A stretch of DNA of 64,000 nucleotides from a phage. The position numbers and the translations under genes are program-made. Position 1 is the first letter of the stretch; each line of letters begins with the position of its first letter. Positions 24,828-56,198 of this stretch are shown here, piece by piece. Below the pieces are notes generated by a model. The model worked only from the letters and a program-made list of their open reading frames with translations, made no database searches and had not been told where the DNA came from. Location of the stretch: the NCBI GenBank assembly GCA_032986305.1, contig GCA_032986305.1_3672.1; one strand, 5' to 3'.

Positions 24828-25804
24828 TTATATTCAAAGGTGGTCGCAACACCACCTTCCGCACCTTTACGTGCTGCTGCATGTTACCATGCAGAGTAGA
24901 CTATATCACCACCCATTTCAGGGTGCTTCGCTTTTCGAGCGCCATAAGCTTGCGCCCTACTCCCTCTCGGGATAGTCGTTGAACTACATTACCAATCGTA
25001 ATTGTTTGAAATATAGGTGTAAGTCTTACGGTCTTTTATTCCTTTAACAACACTAAAACTTACTCCCCACTTCTTAGCTATTTTATTTACACACAAGACC
25101 TTATCACTAAGATCCTCGCAGATACCTATTATCTTGTGCTCACTTATCCGATTAGAGGTTGGCACTTTTCTAAAGTTAAACTCTTTAGAAATATCTGGGT
25201 ATACTGAGCCATTCTTTATACCACTTACAAGTGGTTGATTGACACCAAACATTTCACAAATGTCTTTTACCCTTGCGCCTTGCTCTAACAGCCTACATAT
25301 TTCAAGAGCAGTGGCATCATCCAGGGACCTGTATTTATTGACATAGTCCTTTTTAAGTCCCATTTCATGAGCGTGATGTGTGTTTTCCTCAGGCGTTGTC
25401 CACTCAAGGTTCCATGCGGCGTTATTCAACTTATTACCATCTAGGTGGTTTACTTGAGTTTTCACGCTGGGATTGTCATTATCAACAAAAGTCATAGCAA
25501 TCACTCTGTGAACGAGCACTTGGAACTTTTTACCGTCCTCGCACAAAGTTACCATAGCATAGCCAGTCTTTTTCTGCACATTAGGATGGAGGAATTTATT
25601 AGAATACAGACTGTAAATTCTGCCATCGTATGTAGCACAATAATGATTGTAGCCTAAAAAGCCTAAATTTTTCATTTCAAACATCTCCCTACTACAGGTT
25701 CGGAAGGGTAATTATAGCTGCTGATTGTCCGTTTAGCAATCGGATTTCCCAGCAATTAACGAAGTTATTCGACGTGCATTTCTGCACGAAGCCACTATCA
25801 TTTA
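24828..25804 (-). mobile_element. group I intron in terminase large subunit gene, carrying an HNH homing endonuclease ORF (boundaries +/- ~20 nt)
   Basis: R-like GTTCAACGACTATC (reverse of 24962-24975) and S-like GATATAGTCT (reverse of 24897-24906) core elements; 3' core nearly identical to the nrdD intron at 53500-53545; interrupts a single terminase reading frame. Confidence 0.65.
24989..25675 (-). CDS. HNH homing endonuclease (intron-encoded)
   Basis: motif ..VHRVIAMTFVDNDNPSVKTQVNHLDGNKLNNAAWNLEW.. (HNH_3-type); ORF lies inside the intron; stop 12 nt before the R element. Confidence 0.7.
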   Translation of the reverse strand: MKNLGFLGYNHYCATYDGRIYSLYSNKFLHPNVQKKTGYAMVTLCEDGKKFQVLVHRVIAMTFVDNDNPSVKTQVNHLDGNKLNNAAWNLEWTTPEENTHHAHEMGLKKDYVNKYRSLDDATALEICRLLEQGARVKDICEMFGVNQPLVSGIKNGSVYPDISKEFNFRKVPTSNRISEHKIIGICEDLSDKVLCVNKIAKKWGVSFSVVKGIKDRKTYTYISNNYDW

Positions 25805-27649: not shown

Positions 27650-27726
27650 GTGGTCTCCACGGAGTGATTCGAACACTCGACCTCCTGATCCCAAATCAGG
27701 CGCTCTACCAAGCTGAGCTACGCGGA
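27650..27726 (-). tRNA. tRNA-Pro (anticodon UGG)
   Basis: hand-folded cloverleaf: acceptor CTCCGCG/CGTGGAG, T-loop TTCGAAT, anticodon loop TTTGGGA, CCA encoded. Confidence 0.8.
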
Positions 27727-27737
27727 GTATTTACTAT

Positions 27738-27812
27738 TTGGTGGCCCTGGGTGGAATTGAACCACCGTCTGGCGATTATGAGTCGCTTGCTTGAACCTTC
27801 CAGCTACAGGGC
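27738..27812 (-). tRNA. tRNA-Met (anticodon CAU; elongator or Ile-lysidine type)
   Basis: acceptor GGCCCTG/CAGGGCC, T-loop TTCAATT, anticodon loop CTCATAA, CCA encoded. Confidence 0.75.
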
Positions 27813-27813
27813 C

Positions 27814-27889
27814 TTGGTGCTGATGGCAGGACTTGAACCTGCAACCTATTGATTACAAATCAATTGCACTACCAATTGTGCTACATCAG
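27814..27889 (-). tRNA. tRNA-Thr (anticodon UGU)
   Basis: acceptor GCTGATG/CATCAGC, D-stem GCAC/GTGC, anticodon loop TTTGTAA, T-loop TTCAAGT, CCA encoded. Confidence 0.8.
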
Positions 27890-27894
27890 CAAAA

Positions 27895-27993
27895 AGGTGC
27901 TAGGCGGTGGAATCGAACCACCTATGTATTCAACGACTACCTCGTCTATTTTCAGGATTAAAAATCCTCGCCCTTGCCAAAGGGCTTACCTAG
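27895..27993 (-). tRNA. atypical tRNA-like gene, possibly tRNA-Lys (anticodon UUU) with ~30-nt extra region; may be a pseudo-tRNA
   Basis: perfect 7-bp acceptor pairing GCTAGGT/GCCTAGC, canonical T-arm GGTGG-TTCGATT-CCACC, D-stem GCCC/GGGC, 4-bp anticodon stem with loop TTTTTAA, but ~99 nt long and no CCA. Confidence 0.35.
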
Positions 27994-28091
27994 CTCAGTA
28001 TGTTGACCATGTTGCTAGTCGGCGATGACGACTGTAACATTTGATAATCCGGTTCTGCTTCCGGCTTTCGCTTAATTACAAGGTCAACAAT

Positions 28092-28182
28092 GTGGCGGAG
28101 AGTAATGGAATCGAACCATCATCGAGTCATCCTCAATGGGACGGTTTTCAAGACCGCTTGAGCACCATTGCTCCCTACCCTC
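28092..28182 (-). tRNA. tRNA-Ser (anticodon UGA), long variable arm
   Basis: acceptor GGAGGGT/ACTCTCC, anticodon loop CTTGAAA, extended variable arm, discriminator G, CCA encoded. Confidence 0.7.
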
Positions 28183-28189
28183 CTTTATA

Positions 28190-28218
28190 AATTATACTGA
28201 TAATGACACTGATTTTCG
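28190..28218 (-). promoter_or_regulatory. sigma70-like promoter upstream of tRNA-Ser
   Basis: minus strand TCGAAA-N17-TATAAT, -10 ending 7 nt before the tRNA 5' end. Confidence 0.4.
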
Positions 28219-28296
28219 AGCAGTTAGTGACTAGTATAAACGACGATAAATATCAATGCCATTATCTGTATTATTTACGCATCTAAAAATATAAAT

Positions 28297-28383
28297 TTGG
28301 TGGGGAGTGGTGGAGTCGAACCACCCGAGTCGCAATGACAATAGATTTACAGTCTACACCGCTACCTCTACGGGATAACTCCC
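28297..28383 (-). tRNA. tRNA-Tyr (anticodon GUA)
   Basis: acceptor GGGGAGT/ACTCCCC, anticodon loop CTGTAAA, long variable arm, T-loop TTCGACT, CCA encoded. Confidence 0.75.
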
Positions 28384-28387
28384 CAAT

Positions 28388-28462
28388 TTGGCACCCCGTA
28401 CTGGACTCGAACCAGTGTCAACGGCTTAGAAGGCCGCTGCTTTATCCACTAAGCTAACAGGG
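28388..28462 (-). tRNA. tRNA-Arg (anticodon UCU)
   Basis: anticodon stem-loop GCGGC-CTTCTAA-GCCGT, T-arm ACTGG-TTCGAGT-CCAGT, CCA encoded. Confidence 0.7.
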
Positions 28463-28559
28463 CACTGGGTGGCTTTCTTTTACACCTTAGCCGCCAGAAA
28501 AGGTGGGAGACCATGTTTACAATATTACACTGTTAAGCAAAGTTTGTCAAGAAAATATT

Positions 28560-47676: not shown

Positions 47677-49988
47677 TCACCAAGGTAATTAAAAGCAACG
47701 GATGTGAAGTGGCATTCGACCCAGAACGTTTAAATAAGGCAGCTATTTTCGGTGACGACGGTAACGGCAATTGGTCACACATTGCACTGGATGCATACAA
47801 ACGACTGTATGATGGATGTACAACCAAAGAAGTTAACCAAGCTATCATAGACTCCTGTGTTAGCCGTAAAGACGAAGCACATTCCCGTATGGCTGGTCGT
47901 GTTCTTATTGGTCAGATTTATAAAGAGGCTTTTGGAGGGTTTACAAAGATCCCTTCCTTACCATCATTTTACAACGACATGGTTGAGAAAGGGTATTGGG
48001 AGGATATGGGTTATAGCTTTACCGAGCTAAATACTTTAGACGCTGTTATTGACCACAGCAAAGATCTCGGTTACGGCTATGCAGTCCTTAAACAGTTTCG
48101 CGACAAATACGGGATCAAGGATACTCTTAAAGACACCCTGTTTGAATCTCCCCAGATGATGTTTATGGGGATAGCAATGGCTGTCATGAAGAATATGCCG
48201 AAAGAACGTCGTATCAACGATGTTGTAAAATTATACACTTATCTGTCCGACTTAAAGATCAATGCTCCGACACCGTACTTAAACGGGCTGCGCACAGGTA
48301 AGACAGGGTATGCATCTTGTTGTGTAATAAAAGCGGATGATACAGCAAAATCTATTGGTGTGGCACGTGAAGTTGCGTACACAATGACGGTTAACCAAGC
48401 AGGTATCGGCTACTATTTATCATCAAGATCTGCAGGCGATGGTGTTCGTGGTAACACTATTAAACACATGGGTAAGATTCCATATTATCGAGGTATTGAT
48501 GCTGGGGTTAAGGAGAACAGACAACAATCGCGTGGCGGTTCTGCAACAGTATCATTCCTTGCACTAGACCCGCAGATTGATGAGCTAATCCGTTTGAGAA
48601 ACCCTATGACTGTTGCTTCAAAAAGAATCAACACCATGGACTACTCTATAGGTATTAATAGGTCGTTTATCAACCGTGTGGCTAAGAATTTAGATTGGAT
48701 GCTTGTTTCTTATAAGCACGCTCCTCAACTGCATGAAGGTATCTTCACCATGTCTATGGAGGAGTTTGATGCAGAGGTTGATCGTATCGCTAAAGATGAC
48801 AGTATTCCTAAAACATGGATCCGAGCTAGAGATCTTGCTGTTGAGCTGATCACGCAGCGTACCGAAGTGGGGAGGCTGTACGTATACTGGACAGATGAGA
48901 TGAATAGACATACACCTTTTAAAGATGTGATCTACTCAAGTAACCTGTGTGCAGAAATAGCCCTCCCGACAAAAGGCTATTCAGATATGCGTAATATCTT
49001 CAAGTACGATGCTGATGATGGCGAGGTTGCATTGTGCTTCCTGTCATCTCTTGTAGCTGGAAGGGTTACCCCAGAGGAGTATGAGGATGTTGCATACTAC
49101 ACGGTGCTTATGATTGACAATGTTATGGAAATCATGACATATCCGTATGAAAATATGGAGAGCACTGTTAAAAAACGCAGATCCATCGGGGTTGGCCTTA
49201 CCAATGTTGCACATTTTATTGCCAGCCACAAGGTTACTTACGGATCTCCTGAAAGTAAACAGCTTGTTCACGATCTTGCAGAACTTCACAGCTACAGCTT
49301 GCATAAGGCAAGTTTACGGTTGGCAAAAGAGCGTGGTGTCTGCGAGTGGATGCATAAAACAAAATATCCAGAAGGTTGGTTACCAATCGACACCTATAAC
49401 AAAGAGGTAGATAGCGTGGTGAAAGATCCTTCTCTTAAACAGGATTGGGAAGGGTTACGTAAAGAAATCATTGAAAATGGTGGGCTACGTAATAGCGTTC
49501 TTGAAGCATATATGCCTAATGAAAGCTCTTCGCTGGCAACAAACACCACTAATGGGGTTTATCCTGTCCGTGAGCACATTATCTTTAAAAAATCGCCACA
49601 AGGGCAGGTGCTGTTTATCGTTCCTGACTATGATGAGTTGAAAGAGTATTACACCTCGGCTTGGGACGTTGATACTAACGACATGATCGATATGTATGCT
49701 GTGATTCAAAAATTCACAGGTCAGGCAATCAGCGCGGATTTATACATAGACTACACCAAGTTGAAAGATGGTAAAATTTCAATGAAGGAGCAGCTAGGGT
49801 ACCTTATCCGTGCCACTAAATTCGGGATGAAGACATGGTATTATTTAAACTCTAGGGTTGGTGCTGGTGACTCCTTGGCAGAGGAACTTCATGCCAAGAA
49901 ACAGGCTGAAGATGAAACCAGAAAGAACTACCCTTTGATTGCAGATAGTTCAGTTGAAGATCCGTATTGCGAAAGCTGTGCACTATAA
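47673..49988 (+). CDS. nrdA: ribonucleotide reductase class Ia large subunit NrdA
   Basis: 771 aa; active-site motif SNLCAEIALP, C-terminal redox cysteine pair YCESCAL. Confidence 0.85.
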   Translation: MITKVIKSNGCEVAFDPERLNKAAIFGDDGNGNWSHIALDAYKRLYDGCTTKEVNQAIIDSCVSRKDEAHSRMAGRVLIGQIYKEAFGGFTKIPSLPSFYNDMVEKGYWEDMGYSFTELNTLDAVIDHSKDLGYGYAVLKQFRDKYGIKDTLKDTLFESPQMMFMGIAMAVMKNMPKERRINDVVKLYTYLSDLKINAPTPYLNGLRTGKTGYASCCVIKADDTAKSIGVAREVAYTMTVNQAGIGYYLSSRSAGDGVRGNTIKHMGKIPYYRGIDAGVKENRQQSRGGSATVSFLALDPQIDELIRLRNPMTVASKRINTMDYSIGINRSFINRVAKNLDWMLVSYKHAPQLHEGIFTMSMEEFDAEVDRIAKDDSIPKTWIRARDLAVELITQRTEVGRLYVYWTDEMNRHTPFKDVIYSSNLCAEIALPTKGYSDMRNIFKYDADDGEVALCFLSSLVAGRVTPEEYEDVAYYTVLMIDNVMEIMTYPYENMESTVKKRRSIGVGLTNVAHFIASHKVTYGSPESKQLVHDLAELHSYSLHKASLRLAKERGVCEWMHKTKYPEGWLPIDTYNKEVDSVVKDPSLKQDWEGLRKEIIENGGLRNSVLEAYMPNESSSLATNTTNGVYPVREHIIFKKSPQGQVLFIVPDYDELKEYYTSAWDVDTNDMIDMYAVIQKFTGQAISADLYIDYTKLKDGKISMKEQLGYLIRATKFGMKTWYYLNSRVGAGDSLAEELHAKKQAEDETRKNYPLIADSSVEDPYCESCAL

Positions 49989-50026
49989 TTTTAAAGGGGC
50001 TTCGGCCCCATTTTAGAGGTAGAATA

Positions 50027-51115
50027 ATGGCTGTATTTAATGCTGAGAACACCGCTCATAAAACTGGTGACTATCCGCTGTTTCTGGGACAGCAAATGGG
50101 TATGTACGACTCTATCAACAAAAAATATCCACAACTGTTCGAACTGTACAAAAAACAAAAAGAACAAGACTGGGCAGAGGATGAAGTGGATTTGTCGCAA
50201 TCTATTTCAGATTTTGTAACATGCTCCAAGTCAACTTATGATGTGATGGTGCAGACCTTGATGTGGCAATGGGAGGCTGATAGCGTTGCGGCAAGATCGA
50301 TCATCTGCCTCTTTTCACCATTCATCACTAATAGTGAGCTTTTCACTCTATTGATGAAACAGTCAGAGATTGAAGTTCTTCACGCGCTAACTTACTCAGA
50401 GATTGTTAGACAATGCCTCCCCAATGCCCGTGAGATTATAGAAGAGATTCAGGAAAACCAAAACGTTCTGAGCAGATCTGGCGTTATTGTCAAATACATG
50501 CAAGAGCTTGAGGTTATTGGTGCAAAATACCGACTGGATCCTTCTAGTGTTGAAGAAGATATTGTGCGGAAATGCATTCTTAGAGCGCTTTTTGCACTTT
50601 TAGCCCTGGAAAGTATTGAGTTTATTGCAAGTTTTGCATGCACTTTCGCAGTAGCTGAACAGGGTATTTTTGTTCAGGTGGCGCAGCTTGTTCAAAAAAT
50701 CATGCTTGACGAAATGCTACATTCGAAAGGTGATTTTGCCATCATTGATATCCTGCTTAATGATCCGGCATGGGAGAAAAGCTTCCTTGAGATAAAAGGG
50801 GAGTTAAAAGAGATTCTTGATGAAGTACGAACCAAAGAGTACGGTTGGAGTGACTATATTTTCAGCGAAGGAAGAGCGATTATAGGTCTTAACTCACCAT
50901 TGCTTAAAGAATGGGTTGACTATAACTGCTCACCGATTTATGATTACTACGGCATCGACAAAGACTTTGTGCCGCCAACAAAGGACCCTCTACCGTTTAT
51001 GCAGGTGTGGATGAAACCTTCATTGCAACAGACGGCGAACCAAGAAATGTCGAACACTGACTACCGCGTCAACACAACTGTTAATGACGCTGAAGAAGAA
51101 ATTTGGGAGTTTTAA
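50027..51115 (+). CDS. nrdB: ribonucleotide reductase small subunit NrdB
   Basis: immediately downstream of nrdA; ~360 aa; start ATG with GAGG RBS. Confidence 0.75.
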   Translation: MAVFNAENTAHKTGDYPLFLGQQMGMYDSINKKYPQLFELYKKQKEQDWAEDEVDLSQSISDFVTCSKSTYDVMVQTLMWQWEADSVAARSIICLFSPFITNSELFTLLMKQSEIEVLHALTYSEIVRQCLPNAREIIEEIQENQNVLSRSGVIVKYMQELEVIGAKYRLDPSSVEEDIVRKCILRALFALLALESIEFIASFACTFAVAEQGIFVQVAQLVQKIMLDEMLHSKGDFAIIDILLNDPAWEKSFLEIKGELKEILDEVRTKEYGWSDYIFSEGRAIIGLNSPLLKEWVDYNCSPIYDYYGIDKDFVPPTKDPLPFMQVWMKPSLQQTANQEMSNTDYRVNTTVNDAEEEIWEF

Positions 51116-51118
51116 TAC

Positions 51119-51397
51119 ATGAGCTGTGAAAAATCTTTTTTCTTTATTATTTACGGTAAAGATAACTGCCCACATTGTGTAAGAGCAAAAGAATTTGCAG
51201 TCAGTAAAGGTCTGCCTTTTGTATATAAGACACTTGGCGAGGGTTACACAAAAGAAGAGCTTATTGAGAAGTGCAGTCCAATCGTACCCAGAACGTTGCC
51301 GCAGATCTTCTTAGAAAGCAATCTTGAAAGTGCCCATATAGGCGGTGCCGACGATTTCATCTCTTTTGTTAAGAATGGTTTTGGAGAGAAAAAGTGA
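51119..51397 (+). CDS. glutaredoxin/NrdH-like redoxin
   Basis: CPHC active-site motif (..YGKDNCPHCVRAKEF..). Confidence 0.7.
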   Translation: MSCEKSFFFIIYGKDNCPHCVRAKEFAVSKGLPFVYKTLGEGYTKEELIEKCSPIVPRTLPQIFLESNLESAHIGGADDFISFVKNGFGEKK

Positions 51398-52254
51398 AAG
51401 TTGTAAAACGGGACGGTAGAGAAGAGGTCTATAACGGAATTAAGGTGATCAAGGCGGCAGAGTCCGCCTTACTTGAGTCTGGACATACTGAAGAAGAAGC
51501 TTACCGGATCGCCTGCGCGGTTAATGAAGTTGTTGCTAACAATCTACCAACCGACCAGTGCACGATCTCTGTAAAAAATATCCATATCCTTGTTGAAGAC
51601 GCTCTTATGGATATGGGTTTAAAATGTGCAGCCAGAGAATACATCCAGTATAGGCAGACAAGAGATAATAACAGAGAGGCAGGTGGAAAACTGCTTGCAG
51701 ATATTAGTGGCTTCTTGGATCGCACTTGTGATGAATTTACAAAAGAAAACGCAAATAAGCCTACCAATCATGTACACACTCATCGTGACCTGCTTGCAGG
51801 CATCCTTAGCAAACACCTTGCATCAACACAGATCCTGCCAGACCGTGTCTCAGAAGAGCACAATAAAGGCTTCATCCATGTGCATGATCTTGACTACTTG
51901 ATCAGTCCGTTAACAAACTGTTGTTTGGTAAATTATCCAGATATGTTGGAAAACGGATTCAACATTGGTAACGCCCATGTCAGTAAGCCGAAGTCAATAG
52001 GGGTTGCAACAACAATCCTTAGCCAAATTTCTAGTGCAGTAGCTAGTGCTCAGTATGGGGGTCAGACTATGAGCCATATTGATCATTATCTGGCACAGTA
52101 TGCTGAGGCGACCTATGAGAAGAATCTTAAATTTTGCCAGGAACACTGGTTGCCAGATGCTGAGACTGTTGCAATGCAAATGACAGATAAAGACGTATTT
52201 GACAGCATGCAGACTTTGCTCTATCAAATCAATACGTTAACCTCTGTCAACGGT
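51394..52254 (+). CDS. nrdD: anaerobic ribonucleotide reductase NrdD, exon 1 (GTG start)
   Basis: N-terminal ATP-cone-like MKVVKRDGREEVYNG..; reading frame continues into exons 2 and 3 after intron removal. Confidence 0.7.
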
Positions 52255-52568
52255 TAACAAACTGGCCGTTTTAAAACTCTGCTAACCTCAGTATGAGGGG
52301 TCAGCTGATCGCTGGCTAACGGGGAACGCTAAGGCGAAAGCTATGCCAATCCCGTGACTAGCTTCACAAGGAGTGAGGCGGTTGTAACGACTAACCTTTT
52401 GGTGTAGGGATTATGGAAGATTCCGAAACGCAGAGGTCTGATTAAGAATCACACGGTGTGATTTCAGGCAAGAGATAGTCTGGCCTTGTGGAAACATAAG
52501 GGTGGGGACCGCAAACCCCTTTTATCACATTAAGTTTAGGTCTGGACACCTCAGTATTTGGTAGAATG
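52255..52568 (+). mobile_element. group I intron 1 in nrdD (ORF-less, ~314 nt)
   Basis: non-coding insertion between in-frame nrdD segments; R-like AACGACTAACC (52386-52396), S-like AGATAGTC (52473-52480); 5' exon ends in GGT, intron ends AATG; homologous to the other two introns. Confidence 0.55.
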
Positions 52569-52811
52569 ATTACCAAAAACTACTTGAAAGTCCACAAAAT
52601 GGGTCTTGGTGAAGAATGTATCACACCTGTGTTCCCTAAAGTGCTGTTCTTCCTAGAAGAGGGTGTCAACATGAACCCTGGAGATCCTAACTATGATTTG
52701 AAACGTTTAGCTCTGGAATGCTCTGCAGAGCGGATTTATCCTGACTTTGTTTCTGTTCCACTAAATCGTAAAGTGACAGGCTCGACAGATGGCAAAGTAA
52801 CGAGCATGGGT
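52569..52811 (+). CDS. nrdD: NrdD exon 2
   Basis: encodes ..VFPKVLFFLEEGVNMNPGDPNYDLKRLALECSAERIYPDF.. matching recalled class III RNR sequence; ends in GGT before intron 2. Confidence 0.6.
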
Positions 52812-53573
52812 AAACTATAACTGCTCATGTAAAATCTATCTAAACGGGGAAACTCCAGAACGGACAATCCCGTGCTAAACGTAACAGAACTCCTGACCAA
52901 GAGGAGTCCTGAAATGAGAAAACAAATTCGTGATTTTGAAGGTTATGAAATTGACGAGATGGGCAATGTTTATTGCACCCGCTACGAAAATGAAAGAATT
53001 ATTCATTCGTGGGAAGAGATAAACACAGGTTACCGTCTTGTTAGGATACGCAAGAACAAAAAGACTGTTTGCCTAAGGGTTCACAGACTTGTTGCTGAAG
53101 CGTTCTTACCAAATCCAGACAATTTACCCTATGTTAAGCACAAAGGGGACAACAGGAAAGATAACAGTGTATACAACCTTGAGTGGGGAGCTTGCCCAGA
53201 CAATACGCAAGAAGGATACAACAACAACTGTTATGCTTTTTACACAAGATGCCACGGTGTGAAAGCCACCAACAAATTAACTGGTGAGGTTTTCCACTTT
53301 AAAAGTCTGAGATGTTGTGCTGATGTTTTAGGAGTGGATAGAAAAAGAATATCTGCTATCCTGAAACGTGGTGCGCCTAATAACTATGATTACGAGTTCT
53401 GTTACGAAATGCCTAACGACTAACCGTGATGAATGTAGCGGTGTAGGGTGTAAGCCGATGACACTCGAAATGGTAGACACACTAAGTGTGAAGATATAGT
53501 CTGATCTGCATGGGAACATGCAGCAGCACGTAAAGGTGCGGGGGTGGACTTGCGAACCACCCTGAACATAATG
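52812..53573 (+). mobile_element. group I intron 2 in nrdD, carrying an HNH homing endonuclease ORF
   Basis: R-like AACGACTAACC (53415-53425), S-like AAGATATAGTC (53491-53501); 3' core near-identical to terminase intron; exons rejoin as ..TSMG|CRSFL.. Confidence 0.65.
52915..53423 (+). CDS. HNH homing endonuclease (intron-encoded)
   Basis: GAGGAG RBS; motif ..RVHRLVAEAFLPNPDNLPYVKHKGDNRKDNSVYNLEW..; stop codon lies inside the intron R element. Confidence 0.7.
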
Positions 53574-54536
53574 TGTAGAAGTTTCTTATCGAAATATAGC
53601 GACCCTGTAACAGGCGAGGAGAAATACCTTGGCAGATTTAACTTAGGCGTTGTTAGCCTTAACCTGCCAATGATTGCGGCAAAAGCCAAGACGGAAGGTG
53701 TTGATTTCTTTGCAGTTCTTGACGAATACTTGGATCTTGCATACGAGGCTCACCTTGTAAGGGTTAATCGTCTAAAAGGAACAAAGGCAGGGCAGAACCC
53801 CATCATGTGGTGTGAAGGCGCTCTTGCTCGCCTGGATCCTGAAGAGAGTGTTGATAAACTCTTCTATGACGGGTACGCTTCCATCAGTATTGGGTATATT
53901 GGTGTGTATGAAACCTGTCAGATTTTGGGTAGAGAGGGTGACAAGGCTTTAGCTCTTGGAATCCTTCAGCACATGAGAGATGCTTGTGAGCGATACAAGA
54001 AGGAAAGTAGACTAGCGTTTAGCTTGTACGGCACTCCTTCTGAGAGTCTATGCTATAAAGCTGCAACCTGTCTGGATCGTGAATATCCGGAAGTGTTGAA
54101 GCACGAGCATGAATATCTCACCAACAGTTTCCATCAGCCAGTATGGATAAATAGCTCTCCTTTTGATAAGTGGGAGTATGAGGAAGGTTTTGCTATGATC
54201 TCCTCTGGTGGCAACATCGGATACGTAGAAACACCTAACCTGAAAAACAACCTGGATGCTTTAGAGGCTCTTGTTGACTTCGGGTATAAACATATTATGT
54301 ACTTCGGTATAAACCAGCCTGTTGACCAATGCTTCAAGTGCGGTTTCCAGGGAGAATTTAAAGCCTCTCCAAGAGGTTTTATATGCCCTTGTTGTGGAAA
54401 CCATGAGGAGGGAACGATCAGTGTAATTAGACGTGTGTCTGGATACCTTTCCAGTCCTAACTCCCGTCCTTACAATAAAGGTAAGCAAGCGGAAGTTATA
54501 GAACGGGTTAAGCACTATGGAAGTTGTAGTTGCTGA
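53574..54536 (+). CDS. nrdD: NrdD exon 3 (glycyl-radical C-terminal part)
   Basis: CRSFL..GRFNLGVVSLNLPMIA, C-terminal Cys cluster CFKCG..CPCCG and glycyl-radical-like RRVSGYL. Confidence 0.7.
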   Translation, partial: CRSFLSKYSDPVTGEEKYLGRFNLGVVSLNLPMIAAKAKTEGVDFFAVLDEYLDLAYEAHLVRVNRLKGTKAGQNPIMWCEGALARLDPEESVDKLFYDGYASISIGYIGVYETCQILGREGDKALALGILQHMRDACERYKKESRLAFSLYGTPSESLCYKAATCLDREYPEVLKHEHEYLTNSFHQPVWINSSPFDKWEYEEGFAMISSGGNIGYVETPNLKNNLDALEALVDFGYKHIMYFGINQPVDQCFKCGFQGEFKASPRGFICPCCGNHEEGTISVIRRVSGYLSSPNSRPYNKGKQAEVIERVKHYGSCSC

Positions 54537-54602: not shown

Positions 54603-55559
54603 ATGCCTAGAGGAAAACAACTTACAACTGAAGAATTTACAAAAAGAGCTAGAGAAGTACATGGCGATAAATATGACTATTCAAAAACCGTATATAAAAC
54701 TGCTAAAAGTAAGGTTGTAATTGTATGCCCTGTTCATGGTGAGTTTACGCAGATCGCTGGACATCATATCCTTGACGGTAGTGGGTGTCCTAAGTGTGGT
54801 AGAGTGCCAGTAGGCAATAAGCTTAGAAACGATTCTAGTGATATTATCAAAAAATTTGTAAAAATCCACGGTGACACCTATGATTATTCTAAGGTTGAAT
54901 ATGTTAACTATAAAACTCCTGTAAAAATTGTATGCCCTGAGCACGGAGTGTTCTTGCAATCCCCATCTAACCATTTGAAAGGCCAAGGGTGCCCTGAGTG
55001 TAGTAAACTCATTAGCGCAGCAAAAAGGAATAAAGGCCCTGAATTCATAGAAAGAGCCAAAGAAATCCATGGCGATAAATATGACTACTCTTTTGTAGAT
55101 TATATGACTTGCGAAGATAAGGTAGAGATAATCTGCAACACTTGTGGAAATCACTTCACCCAGACACCTTCTTGCCACCTGTCTGGTCGTGGATGCCCTA
55201 AATGTGCCAAAAACGGTTTCTTATCTCACAACTATGGGAAGCTTTACCTCATGGTTGATAACTTAGAAGCGCCAACACTTATGAAGATTGGTGTGAGCGT
55301 CAATGTAGAAGCGAGGAAGGGAAGGATATTAAGAGCATCCAAGAAGGCTGGTGCAGGTATTTATGATCTCCACATAGTAAAAACATGGGGCGGATCGACT
55401 GAAAACATGCTGAGTGTAGAAAAATCTGTGCATGAAGCCTTCAATAAGTATAAAATAAACTTCTCTAAAGTATTTAGTGGAAGCACTGAATTCTTTCACT
55501 ACAGACCTGAAGTGTTTAGCATAGTGGAAGCAGTATACAAAGAGATCTGTGGTAAATGA
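54603..55559 (+). CDS. free-standing homing-endonuclease-like protein: three zinc-finger repeats plus C-terminal T5orf172/GIY-YIG-related domain (tentative)
   Basis: three repeats of HGDKYDYS..C(P)..HG.F..H..G.GCP.C; C-terminal ..GKLYLMVDN..KIGVS..HIV..; between nrdD and nrdG. Confidence 0.45.
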   Translation: MPRGKQLTTEEFTKRAREVHGDKYDYSKTVYKTAKSKVVIVCPVHGEFTQIAGHHILDGSGCPKCGRVPVGNKLRNDSSDIIKKFVKIHGDTYDYSKVEYVNYKTPVKIVCPEHGVFLQSPSNHLKGQGCPECSKLISAAKRNKGPEFIERAKEIHGDKYDYSFVDYMTCEDKVEIICNTCGNHFTQTPSCHLSGRGCPKCAKNGFLSHNYGKLYLMVDNLEAPTLMKIGVSVNVEARKGRILRASKKAGAGIYDLHIVKTWGGSTENMLSVEKSVHEAFNKYKINFSKVFSGSTEFFHYRPEVFSIVEAVYKEICGK

Positions 55560-55611: not shown

Positions 55612-55728
55612 ATGTCATCGGGTATCTATAAAATCTGCAAGTGCGGTTGTCATTGTAATCTTCGTTGGTGCAAGGCACTGGACGATTTTATTTGGCATTG
55701 CCCTAAATGTGATGCGGAGTATCTATGA
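55612..55728 (+). CDS. small Cys-rich (zinc-ribbon-like) protein, 38 aa
   Basis: AAGGAGGTG RBS; MSSGIYKICKCGCHCNLRWCKALDDFIWHCPKCDAEYL; ATGA overlap with nrdG start; below ORF-track size cutoff. Confidence 0.4.
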   Translation: MSSGIYKICKCGCHCNLRWCKALDDFIWHCPKCDAEYL

Positions 55729-56198
55729 ATATTGCCGGATACACAGAAATATCTTACACCGAAGGGCCAGGTATTAGAACTGCCTTATGGGTATCTGGGT
55801 GCCCACACGCTTGCCCTGGTTGCTTTAATCAGGCATTTTGGTCAAAAGATAAGGGGAGAGAGTTTACTGAAGAAGACTTGCAAAAAATCTTGTCAGATTT
55901 AGATAACCCGTCTGTGTGCGGTATCTCTCTGCTGGGTGGAGAACCCTTAGCATACTATAATGAGCCAGATATTATTAGCCTGATGGAGAAAATTAAGGAA
56001 AAATTTGGTGACAAGAAAACTATTCTTGTATATACTGGGTTCACATTTGACCATATCTCTAGTGATGTTCTTAAACTGGCTGATATCATCATTGACGGTA
56101 AGTATGTAAAAGATTTACCAACCAAGAAACCGTTCCGAGGTAGTGATAACCAAAGAATGTTTAAAAAAGTATCAGGCGGTTGGGTTCAGGTAGACTAG
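55725..56198 (+). CDS. nrdG: anaerobic ribonucleotide reductase activating protein NrdG (radical SAM)
   Basis: 157 aa; N-terminal Cys cluster ..WVSGCPHACPGCFN..; adjacent to nrdD. Confidence 0.65.
   Translation: MNIAGYTEISYTEGPGIRTALWVSGCPHACPGCFNQAFWSKDKGREFTEEDLQKILSDLDNPSVCGISLLGGEPLAYYNEPDIISLMEKIKEKFGDKKTILVYTGFTFDHISSDVLKLADIIIDGKYVKDLPTKKPFRGSDNQRMFKKVSGGWVQVD

Follow-up and report, generated by a model that had tools for sequence, protein, structure and literature searches.

Two optional T4-type group I introns predicted in the nrdD gene of a Vequintavirus

The window analysed here is a stretch of phage DNA of 64,000 nucleotides (nt) (NCBI GenBank assembly GCA_032986305.1, contig GCA_032986305.1_3672.1) from a Vequintavirus, an rV5-like phage of Escherichia coli. 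Its nrdD gene, which encodes the class III ribonucleotide reductase (RNR), is interrupted twice, and it is very likely that the interruptions are two independent, optional T4-type group I introns of subgroup IA2, which would remove themselves to leave a single mRNA frame of 707 amino acids. A first-pass annotation, made from the letters of the sequence, had already proposed a gene of three exons and two group I introns, and this organization is now supported by alleles that define the junctions, by RNA structure and by homology to introns that are either proven or pass the group I model. Splicing in vivo, the activity and target of an endonuclease encoded in the second intron, and the route of homing are what we infer from these data.

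Exon junctions and the reconstructed NrdD

When the region 51394-54536 was used as a query, 303 phage records matched, the best of them being Vequintavirus (rV5-like) coliphages; over the locus, the closest were 241Ecol014PP (95.6% identity at full length) and navn (98%). Both introns could be delimited with alleles that lack them. The allele of phiWec191 (locus L002), without intron 1, reads GTCAACGGG/CAAACCCCATTC (the slash marks the junction, here and below) and is exactly 257 nt shorter; therefore, intron 1 corresponds to 52255-52511 and ends in GGGGACCG. The alleles without intron 2 are exactly 762 nt shorter and read through in frame (loci L003 and L005), and those of AlexBoehm and WalterGehring read AGCATGGGT/TGCCGGAGT, which fixes the second junction to the base: intron 2 is 52812-53573, ending in CATAATG, just as first annotated. 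GGT closes both 5' exons (52252-52254 and 52809-52811), also as annotated, and exon 1 of loci L001 and L003, both of which carry the 257-nt intron, ends in GTAAACGGT and not in GTCAACGGT. The predicted mRNA junctions are GTCAACGGT/CAAACCCCT (52254/52512) and AGCATGGGT/TGTAGAAGT (52811/53574).

The end of intron 1 had originally been set at 52568 and had to be moved to 52511. The frame is open from 52512 and encodes QTPFITLSLGLDTSVFGRM (translation of 52452-52823), the 19 conserved codons of which are removed if exon 2 starts at 52569. That start was rejected, as it leaves Pfam NRDD positions 155-180 missing between exon 1 (positions 1-154) and exon 2 (181-263). The error of 57 nt had stayed hidden because 57 is a multiple of three. 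Likewise, the AATG end once given to both introns was correct for intron 2 but not for intron 1, since the AATG at 52565-52568 is exon sequence (Arg-Met codons).

The concatenated exons gave, as had been predicted, one NrdD with an ATP cone, the CRSFL segment and a glycyl-radical domain, and the Pfam families NRDD, ATP-cone and Gly_radical were all matched. The first 91 residues of exon 1 are the ATP cone (E = 1.7e-14), followed by NRDD profile positions 1-154, and exon 3 holds the Zn-ribbon cysteines and the glycyl-radical domain. The leading Cys of exon 3 was aligned with Cys290 of T4 NrdD, which we take to be the cysteine proposed to carry the thiyl radical, at the finger-loop tip. The spliced product was aligned with T4 NrdD (PDB 1H78, residues 6-604; E = 1.3e-166) and with the 734-amino-acid NrdD 9D3X (residues 15-723; E = 2e-163), in both cases without gaps at either junction, so that a colinear full-length match to class III NrdD is obtained once the introns are removed.

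The GTG start at 51394 overlaps the stop codon of the glutaredoxin gene and has a GGAGAG ribosome-binding site upstream. Many deposited relatives begin nrdD at an internal ATG 213 nt later, and the ATP cone is thereby omitted (51394-51606 in the window; positions 1501-1713 in loci L001, L003, L004 and L005). The longer frame is supported by the GGAGAG at the GTG, by the ATP-cone match and by the alignment with 9D3X from residue 1.

Relatives with other combinations of introns were all conceptually spliced to 707 amino acids, with identities of 95.6-96.0% in nucleotides and 97.7-98.0% in amino acids. These values point to purifying selection on the exons of intron-bearing genomes. Since the exons are intact in these relatives and amino acid identity is above nucleotide identity, nrdD is probably expressed and hence spliced.

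Ribozyme folds, the intron 2 endonuclease and group I membership

The core elements named in the first-pass annotation were recovered in both introns. The R-like string AACGACTAACC has exactly two plus-strand copies (52386-52396 and 53415-53425), and the S-like string AGATAGTCTG lies at 52473-52482, with the variant ATATAGTCTG at 53494-53503. In each intron the last exon U is opposite a guide G, giving the U·G wobble at the 5' splice site, and the terminal guanosine (omega-G), placed by the intron-less alleles, is G52511 or G53573; at position -1 of the allele without intron 1, the base is G instead of U. The group I core (P3-P8, P4-P6 and the P3/P7 pseudoknot) was found with covariation in both, P7 itself (GACUA/UAGUC) being invariant and giving no covariation information. 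The helices P7.1 and P7.2, which in subgroup IA2 separate the 5' half of P7 from the 3' half of P3, are also present in both introns (subgroup definitions from PMC3984707). The coordinates of all elements are collected in Table 1.

For intron 2, all helices of the T4-type IA2 introns could be assigned (P1, P10, P3-P9, P7.1, P7.2, P9.1 and P9.2). In an alignment of the window with ECGD1, Vibrio phage 1.084.O and T4, 96.9% of the cells were paired and 22 of the 69 pairs were compensatory, a result reached by none of 500 shuffles, and slid partners were 33-42% paired; both P7.1 and P7.2 covary in this family. After removal of the open reading frame (ORF), the RNA core was 89.8% identical to that of ECGD1 and 75.7% identical to that of Vibrio phage 1.084.O; for the T4 nrdD intron, the value was 66.5% (about 260 aligned positions). 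With this founding member of IA2, intron 1 shares core motifs only, at 44-49% global identity.

The minimum free energy (MFE) fold of intron 1 gives P1, P3, P4-P6, P7.1, P7.2, P8 and P9, and none of 200 shuffles was as stable (z = -4.1). P3 encloses two extra hairpins (hpA and hpB), P4-P6, the 5' strand of P7, P7.1 and P7.2, and P7 has the same sequence as in the T4 nrdD intron. The intron 1 variant of WalterGehring carries compensatory changes in P3 (CUCUCC/GGAGAG), hpB (GUCGG/CCGGC) and P9 (CCCUGUG/CACAGGG). An alternative P3 suggested by Rfam (CGCUG-CU with CG-CAGAG) was rejected, since it is not conserved in WalterGehring and the pairing CUCUGC/GCAGAG covaries. There is no P2. Between GGGG in the tail and CCCC in exon 2 (52517-52520) a helix can form, and this helix is also compensatory in the WalterGehring variant (GGAG/CUCC versus GGGG/CCCC, 52505-52520). 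At the place of hpA and hpB, a joiner of 3 nt is all that standard group I models show. We know of no precedent for such a pair of hairpins between P3 and P4, nor for a near-absent P10 with pairing between tail and exon. Outside Vequintavirus, the only match to intron 1 was in Bacillus phage S4-2, confined to the P4-P5 region. Tentatively, and with the doubt prevailing, intron 1 might be regarded as a structurally atypical IA2 ribozyme, without P2, with the P3-P4 hairpins, virtually without P10 and with a covarying tail/exon helix. If its RNA self-splices efficiently, this would be a new peripheral arrangement near the catalytic core, and the choice of its 3' splice site, hence NrdD expression, might depend on translation or on a cofactor.

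The ORF in loop L6 of intron 2 matched phrog_59 (E = 3e-32), with weak Pfam HNH_3 and I-HmuI NUMOD-like matches, and is given as an HNH homing endonuclease in the annotation of relatives. Its residues 3-166 align, at low identity, with residues 4-172 of I-HmuI, the HNH nicking endonuclease of the SPO1 DNA polymerase intron (PDB 1U3E; E = 2e-7), and the alignment takes in the HNH region and the C-terminal helix-turn-helix/NUMOD-like region. The Shine-Dalgarno sequence of the ORF (GAGGAG) is in the 3' strand of a hairpin (52889-52907), and its last codons (EFCYEMPND and the stop) coincide with P6', J6/7 and the P7 5' strand. An overlap of ORF and core and a Shine-Dalgarno sequence in a hairpin are said to accompany tight control of endonuclease expression in phage introns (PMC3984707), and expression of the intron 2 endonuclease may likewise be tightly controlled.

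Table 1. Position of nrdD, its exons and introns, the assigned intron elements and the neighbouring genes in the window.
Feature	Position	Strand	Description
nrdA		+	first in the gene order, before nrdB
nrdB	49967-51115	+	
Glutaredoxin gene	51119-51397	+	
nrdD	51394-54536	+	class III ribonucleotide reductase, two interruptions
nrdD exon 1	51394-52254	+	287 codons; ATP cone and N-terminal part of NRDD; 3' end AAC GGT
Intron 1	52255-52511	+	257 nt, no ORF, IA2-like group I; UAA first, terminal G52511
Intron 1 P1	52249-52270	+	exon AACGGU 52249-52254 with guide GCCGUU 52265-52270, U·G at splice site
Intron 1 P3	52277-52435	+	CUCUGC 52277-52282 with GCAGAG 52430-52435
Intron 1 hpA	52286-52298	+	extra hairpin between P3 5' strand and P4, MFE fold
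Intron 1 hpB	52300-52316	+	extra hairpin between P3 5' strand and P4, MFE fold
Intron 1 P4	52319-52324, 52350-52355	+	ACGGGG with UCCCGU
Intron 1 P5	52328-52346	+	GAAA loop
Intron 1 P6	52361-52379	+	
Intron 1 P7	52389-52393, 52476-52480	+	GACUA with UAGUC; pseudoknot with P3/P8
Intron 1 P7.1	52394-52403	+	between P7 strands
Intron 1 P7.2	52407-52424	+	between P7 strands
Intron 1 P8	52436-52469	+	long; between P7 strands
Intron 1 P9	52484-52501	+	CCUUGUG-GAAA-CAUAAGG; 3' tail to 52511, GUGGGGACCG
nrdD exon 2	52512-52811	+	100 codons; opens CAA ACC CCT TTT (QTPF), closes AGC ATG GGT
Intron 2	52812-53573	+	762 nt, IA2, homologue of T4 nrdD (sunY) intron; terminal G53573
Intron 2 P1	52806-52828	+	exon AUGGGU 52806-52811 with GCUCAU 52823-52828, U·G at splice site
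Intron 2 P10	52815-52819, 53574-53578	+	CUAUA with exon 3 UGUAG
Intron 2 5' core	52835-52890	+	P3 UCUAUC 52835-52840; P4 52844-52849 with 52868-52873; P5 52854-52864
Intron 2 P6	52880-52890, 53396-53406	+	11 bp; 5' strand CGUAACAGAAC
HNH homing-endonuclease ORF (putative)	52914-53423	+	169 amino acids, in loop L6 of intron 2, closed by P6
Intron 2 3' core	53396-53573	+	P6' 53396-53406; P7 5' strand 53418-53422; P7.1 53423-53442; P7.2 53446-53466; P3' GGUAGA 53472-53477; P8 53478-53490; P7' 53497-53501; P9 53506-53523; P9.1 53526-53539; P9.2 53542-53562; tail UGAACAUAAUG
nrdD exon 3	53574-54536	+	320 codons and stop; first codon TGT, Cys of CRSFL
Endonuclease-like ORF	54603-55559	+	
nrdG	55725-56198	+	

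The Rfam group I model RF00028, in a search of 1.6 kb at an E-value threshold, detected intron 1 at 52245-52501 (29.2 bits, E = 4e-5; E = 0.0017 in a window-wide search) and, for intron 2, its 3' half only, at 53418-53523 (35.3 bits, E = 6e-7). Several points weigh against the assignment of both insertions as functional group I introns. Although the E-values are significant, both scores lie under the gathering score of 50, and a whole-window Rfam scan at gathering thresholds returned tRNAs only and no group I match. Intron 1 is a genuinely weak match in its own right, with its non-canonical two-hairpin insertion between P3 and P4 and a P10 of scarcely 2 bp. The covariation in intron 2 comes from no more than four sequences, one of which also supplied the structure. 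Furthermore, the Asp that precedes the catalytic His of I-HmuI is replaced by Lys in the intron 2 ORF (VKHK; 53120-53130, residues ~70-73), so that this endonuclease may be impaired in metal binding and activity; the other two HNH ORFs examined have Asn at this place. Finally, it is from sequence that we infer the splicing of both introns. As for the gathering threshold, failure to reach it was rejected as evidence against the introns after two controls, the T4 nrdD intron (105.3 bits) and the ORF-less intron 2 orthologue of ECGD1 (70.4 bits, above the gathering score); the low score of intron 2 arises because the 510-nt ORF splits its core.

If one or both insertions were decayed, splicing-incompetent relics, nrdD would be a pseudogene and the phage would rely on class I NrdAB or on the host enzyme. 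Intron 1 is a likelier candidate for this than intron 2: its score is low, its endonuclease ORF was lost or never present, and its P3-P4 insertion and P10 are atypical; moreover, NrdAB is encoded directly upstream in Vequintaviruses. Nevertheless, 14 genomes share the ORF-less intron 1 at 99.2-99.6% identity, its helices are maintained by compensatory changes relative to the ORF-bearing variant, the three exons are intact under apparent purifying selection (707 amino acids, ~98% amino acid versus ~96% nucleotide identity), and nrdG is retained downstream. Such a relic was considered improbable. A truly split nrdD, whose three pieces are translated separately and assembled into a multi-subunit enzyme, is less probable still. 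Many GenBank records do give the pieces as separate coding sequences (CDSs; nrdD_1, _2 and _3), in-frame ATG or GTG codons (52566 and 53544) lie close to where the downstream pieces begin, and nrdA of Aeromonas phage Aeh1 is reportedly split by mobE. However, the start at 53544 is inside the intron RNA core, that at 52566 drops 18 conserved residues, and the second site would part Gly289 from the presumably catalytic Cys290 in the finger loop; the insertions, besides, have the structure of group I ribozymes, with precise U·G and terminal-G positions, and are homologous to a proven self-splicing intron. Removal by protein splicing or translational bypassing was rejected as scarcely credible, for although inteins are common in RNR genes (PMC3653736), in-frame stops follow 1-3 codons past the 5' junction in both insertions (UAA directly after the GGT at 52254 in intron 1; AAA CUA UAA, after two codons, in intron 2), no intein or Hint domain was found in the Pfam search, and 257 and 762 nt far exceed known bypass gaps.

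Distribution, origin and mobility of the two introns

The distribution of the two introns was surveyed with a probe of 574 nt spanning both spliced junctions, which found 119 related records. Among those listed, the majority are uninterrupted. Intron 1 is present in about 42 (14 in the ORF-less form and 28 in an ORF-bearing form), intron 2 in 18, and both in seven (241Ecol014PP, navn, A147, A135, phita32, C2 and JEP1), close to the 6.4 double carriers expected under independent assortment. The records include genomes with neither intron, with intron 1 only, with intron 2 only and with both, and the introns are polymorphic for presence and absence. To call a phage nrdD with two introns unusual, as had been done, was an overstatement, given these seven deposited relatives and the multi-intron phage RNR genes already documented. 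About 18 GenBank records (within MG065635-MG065690) are labelled "Campylobacter phage", with Campylobacter jejuni as host. This label looks doubtful because they are 93-100% identical at the locus to E. coli Vequintaviruses.

The ORF-bearing intron 1 of other Vequintaviruses (WalterGehring, FFH2, FV3 and slur16) is inserted at the same site as that of the window. The 5' half is 86.7% identical, and P1, P3, hpA, hpB, P4-P6, P7 and P9 are in common. It is, however, 797 nt long, carries a 177-amino-acid HNH ORF in L8 and has its own P7.1, P7.2 and P8 sequences; the 257-nt intron is for this reason not a simple deletion derivative of it. In the BASEL genomes, the nrdD CDS with the ORF-bearing intron 1 is annotated as a join, and so are single-intron nrdD alleles.

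Intron 2 was 96.8-100% identical over its whole length in the 18 Vequintavirus records and about 11 Stephanstirmvirinae genomes had it at ~84.7% identity; other members of this group have derivatives without the ORF except for its final codons. The site-2 introns of Stephanstirmvirinae (ECGD1, VEcB and nepoznato) and of the Vibrio phages 1.084.O and F92 share with intron 2 the MG/CRSFL insertion site and the downstream exon start UGUAGAAG. Those of VEcB and nepoznato are 84.7% identical to the whole of intron 2, HNH ORF included, whereas that of Vibrio phage 1.084.O is 76.6% identical in its 3' core and has a different ORF, annotated as winged helix-turn-helix. The ECGD1-type copies have lost the ORF except for its last ~13 codons, and in ECGD1 (Justusliebigvirus) the CDS is annotated as a join. 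In the ECGD1 intron (locus L008, 2896-3173) these codons (YDYEFCYEMPND and the stop) are fused to a short remnant, which indicates that the ORF was lost by internal deletion with P6 preserved. Intron 1 was not seen in any of these Stephanstirmvirinae and Vibrio phage genomes. The distribution of intron 2 fits a cycle of invasion, decay and loss.

The exon sequence next to intron 2 carries a further trace of mobility. The start of exon 3 (53574-53612, ~35-39 nt, TGTAGAAGTTTCTTATCG), which also supplies the P10 partner UGUAG, is identical in all intron-2-bearing alleles, whereas the alleles without intron 2 (TGCCGGAGTTTTCTTAGC; AlexBoehm-type ATGGGTTGCCGGAGTTTTCTTAGC) differ at 14-15 mostly synonymous positions. 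We regard this stretch as a probable tract of co-conversion or of immunity to the endonuclease. In T-even phages, intron homing is classically recognized by co-conversion and by variable occurrence (PMC2988022). Intron 2 also has the intact ORF in a peripheral loop that characterizes a mobile intron, and the intron 1 of the window has none.

The following course of events is proposed. Each intron would fold into a ribozyme with the P1 U·G pair, the P3-P8 core, the P3/P7 pseudoknot and P7.1/P7.2, and two guanosine-initiated transesterifications would remove it, so that 51394-52254, 52512-52811 and 53574-54536 would be joined into the mRNA of the 707-amino-acid enzyme. In a mixed infection, the HNH enzyme of intron 2 presumably cuts or nicks intron-less nrdD near the Gly-Cys(290) codons, and repair would transfer a copy of intron 2 to the recipient along with ~35 nt of the exon that follows it (homing with co-conversion). 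Intron 1, which lacks an endonuclease gene, probably persists by vertical descent, recombination or mobilization in trans; it is a sister form of the intron that bears an HNH ORF in L8 elsewhere in Vequintaviruses.

The two introns had been described as homologous. This holds for their subgroup and core motifs, since they have in common the strings ACGGGGAA, CAATCCCGTG, AACGACTAACC, GGTGTAGGG, CGAAA and ATAGTCTG, but it does not extend to the whole introns: in a MAFFT alignment with the T4 and terL introns, their global identity was ~44%, not clearly higher than for shuffled sequences (z = 1.3). This alignment, in which intron 1 is misaligned, was rejected as a basis for close homology. The T4 nrdD intron (66-71%) and the terL intron of the window (65%) are much nearer to intron 2 than intron 1 is. 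Because of this difference in identity, introns 1 and 2 are considered independent arrivals from one broad family and not the product of a duplication.

The terL intron is also a T4-type group I intron, on the minus strand at ~25800-24826 between exons 26547-25798 and 24806-24021, and contains a 231-amino-acid HNH ORF (24989-25684). In the P9-P9.2 domain it differs very little from nrdD intron 2 (Rfam 35.3 and 21.4 bits), and it corresponds to the intron described for rV5 (PMC3606486).

The T4 nrdD (sunY) intron, of subgroup IA2, shares with intron 2 the host gene, the ribozyme family, identical P7 and P9 and the order of helices. Both have, in addition, a UGAACA..AUUG/AAUG tail at the 3' end and an in-frame stop early on. 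The insertion sites differ: in T4 numbering, the T4 intron is inside codon Tyr180, intron 1 between Gly190 and Gln191, ~31 nt downstream of the T4 site, and intron 2 between Gly289 and Cys290. The encoded enzymes differ as well, the T4 intron carrying the GIY-YIG endonuclease I-TevII downstream of P9.1 and intron 2 an HNH enzyme in L6. A preference for the codons of catalytic residues is known of homing endonucleases and their introns (PMC2988022).

Two further observations were made in the window. The gene between nrdD and nrdG (Table 1) is a free-standing endonuclease-like gene (phrog_681, E = 1e-67; Pfam T5orf172, MUG113, DUF723 and zinc-ribbon repeats), which is present in WalterGehring and not in 241Ecol014PP, AlexBoehm or phiWec191, and is another optional mobile gene. 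It is analogous to mobC of T4, placed between nrdG and nrdD. Additionally, a tRNA cluster on the minus strand (27654-28463) contains at least five genes (Rfam 29.9-79.5 bits) and two or three weaker tRNA-like matches.

Ribonucleotide reductase genes as intron hosts

In phages, no genes host introns more often than those of RNR, and one such gene can hold up to three; nrdE has two introns in Twort and three in Brochothrix phage A9 (PMC3653736). These two genes and bnrdE/bnrdF of SPbeta have, like the nrdD of the window, several group I introns beside conserved catalytic residues, some of them with HNH genes (PMC3653736). They are, however, class Ib genes of Gram-positive phages, whereas the window has a class III gene from a coliphage, whose two introns assort independently among close relatives. 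In Certrevirus CB7, a related phage, reverse transcription PCR has shown that introns with HNH genes are spliced out of nrdA, nrdB, terL and the DNA polymerase gene (PMC7344957).

No paper describing the nrdD introns of rV5-like phages was found in the literature: the rV5 genome paper gives the terL intron only (PMC3606486), and the BASEL paper treats intron boundaries only in generic terms (PMC8594841). The nrdD introns are hence new or only database-annotated, an ordinary finding for a phage RNR gene, and no new kind of mechanism is opened by them. For annotation, the consequence is practical. Most deposited Vequintavirus genomes have nrdD in two or three fragments (the double-intron genomes were deposited with three) or with a start 213 nt late, and the exact junctions permit one correct CDS of 707 amino acids.

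The locus is a clean example of the rules known from T-even phages, in which RNR genes are intron magnets and introns sit at the most conserved codons. It also indicates that ribozyme core, endonuclease gene and insertion site evolve independently, since a sunY-type core is found here at a new site of nrdD and with an HNH gene in L6 instead of a 3' GIY-YIG gene. With their four configurations and their ORF-bearing and ORF-less forms, the ~119 genomes are a ready system for the study of the homing cycle, and they are equally suited to the study of transfer between Vequintavirinae and Stephanstirmvirinae.

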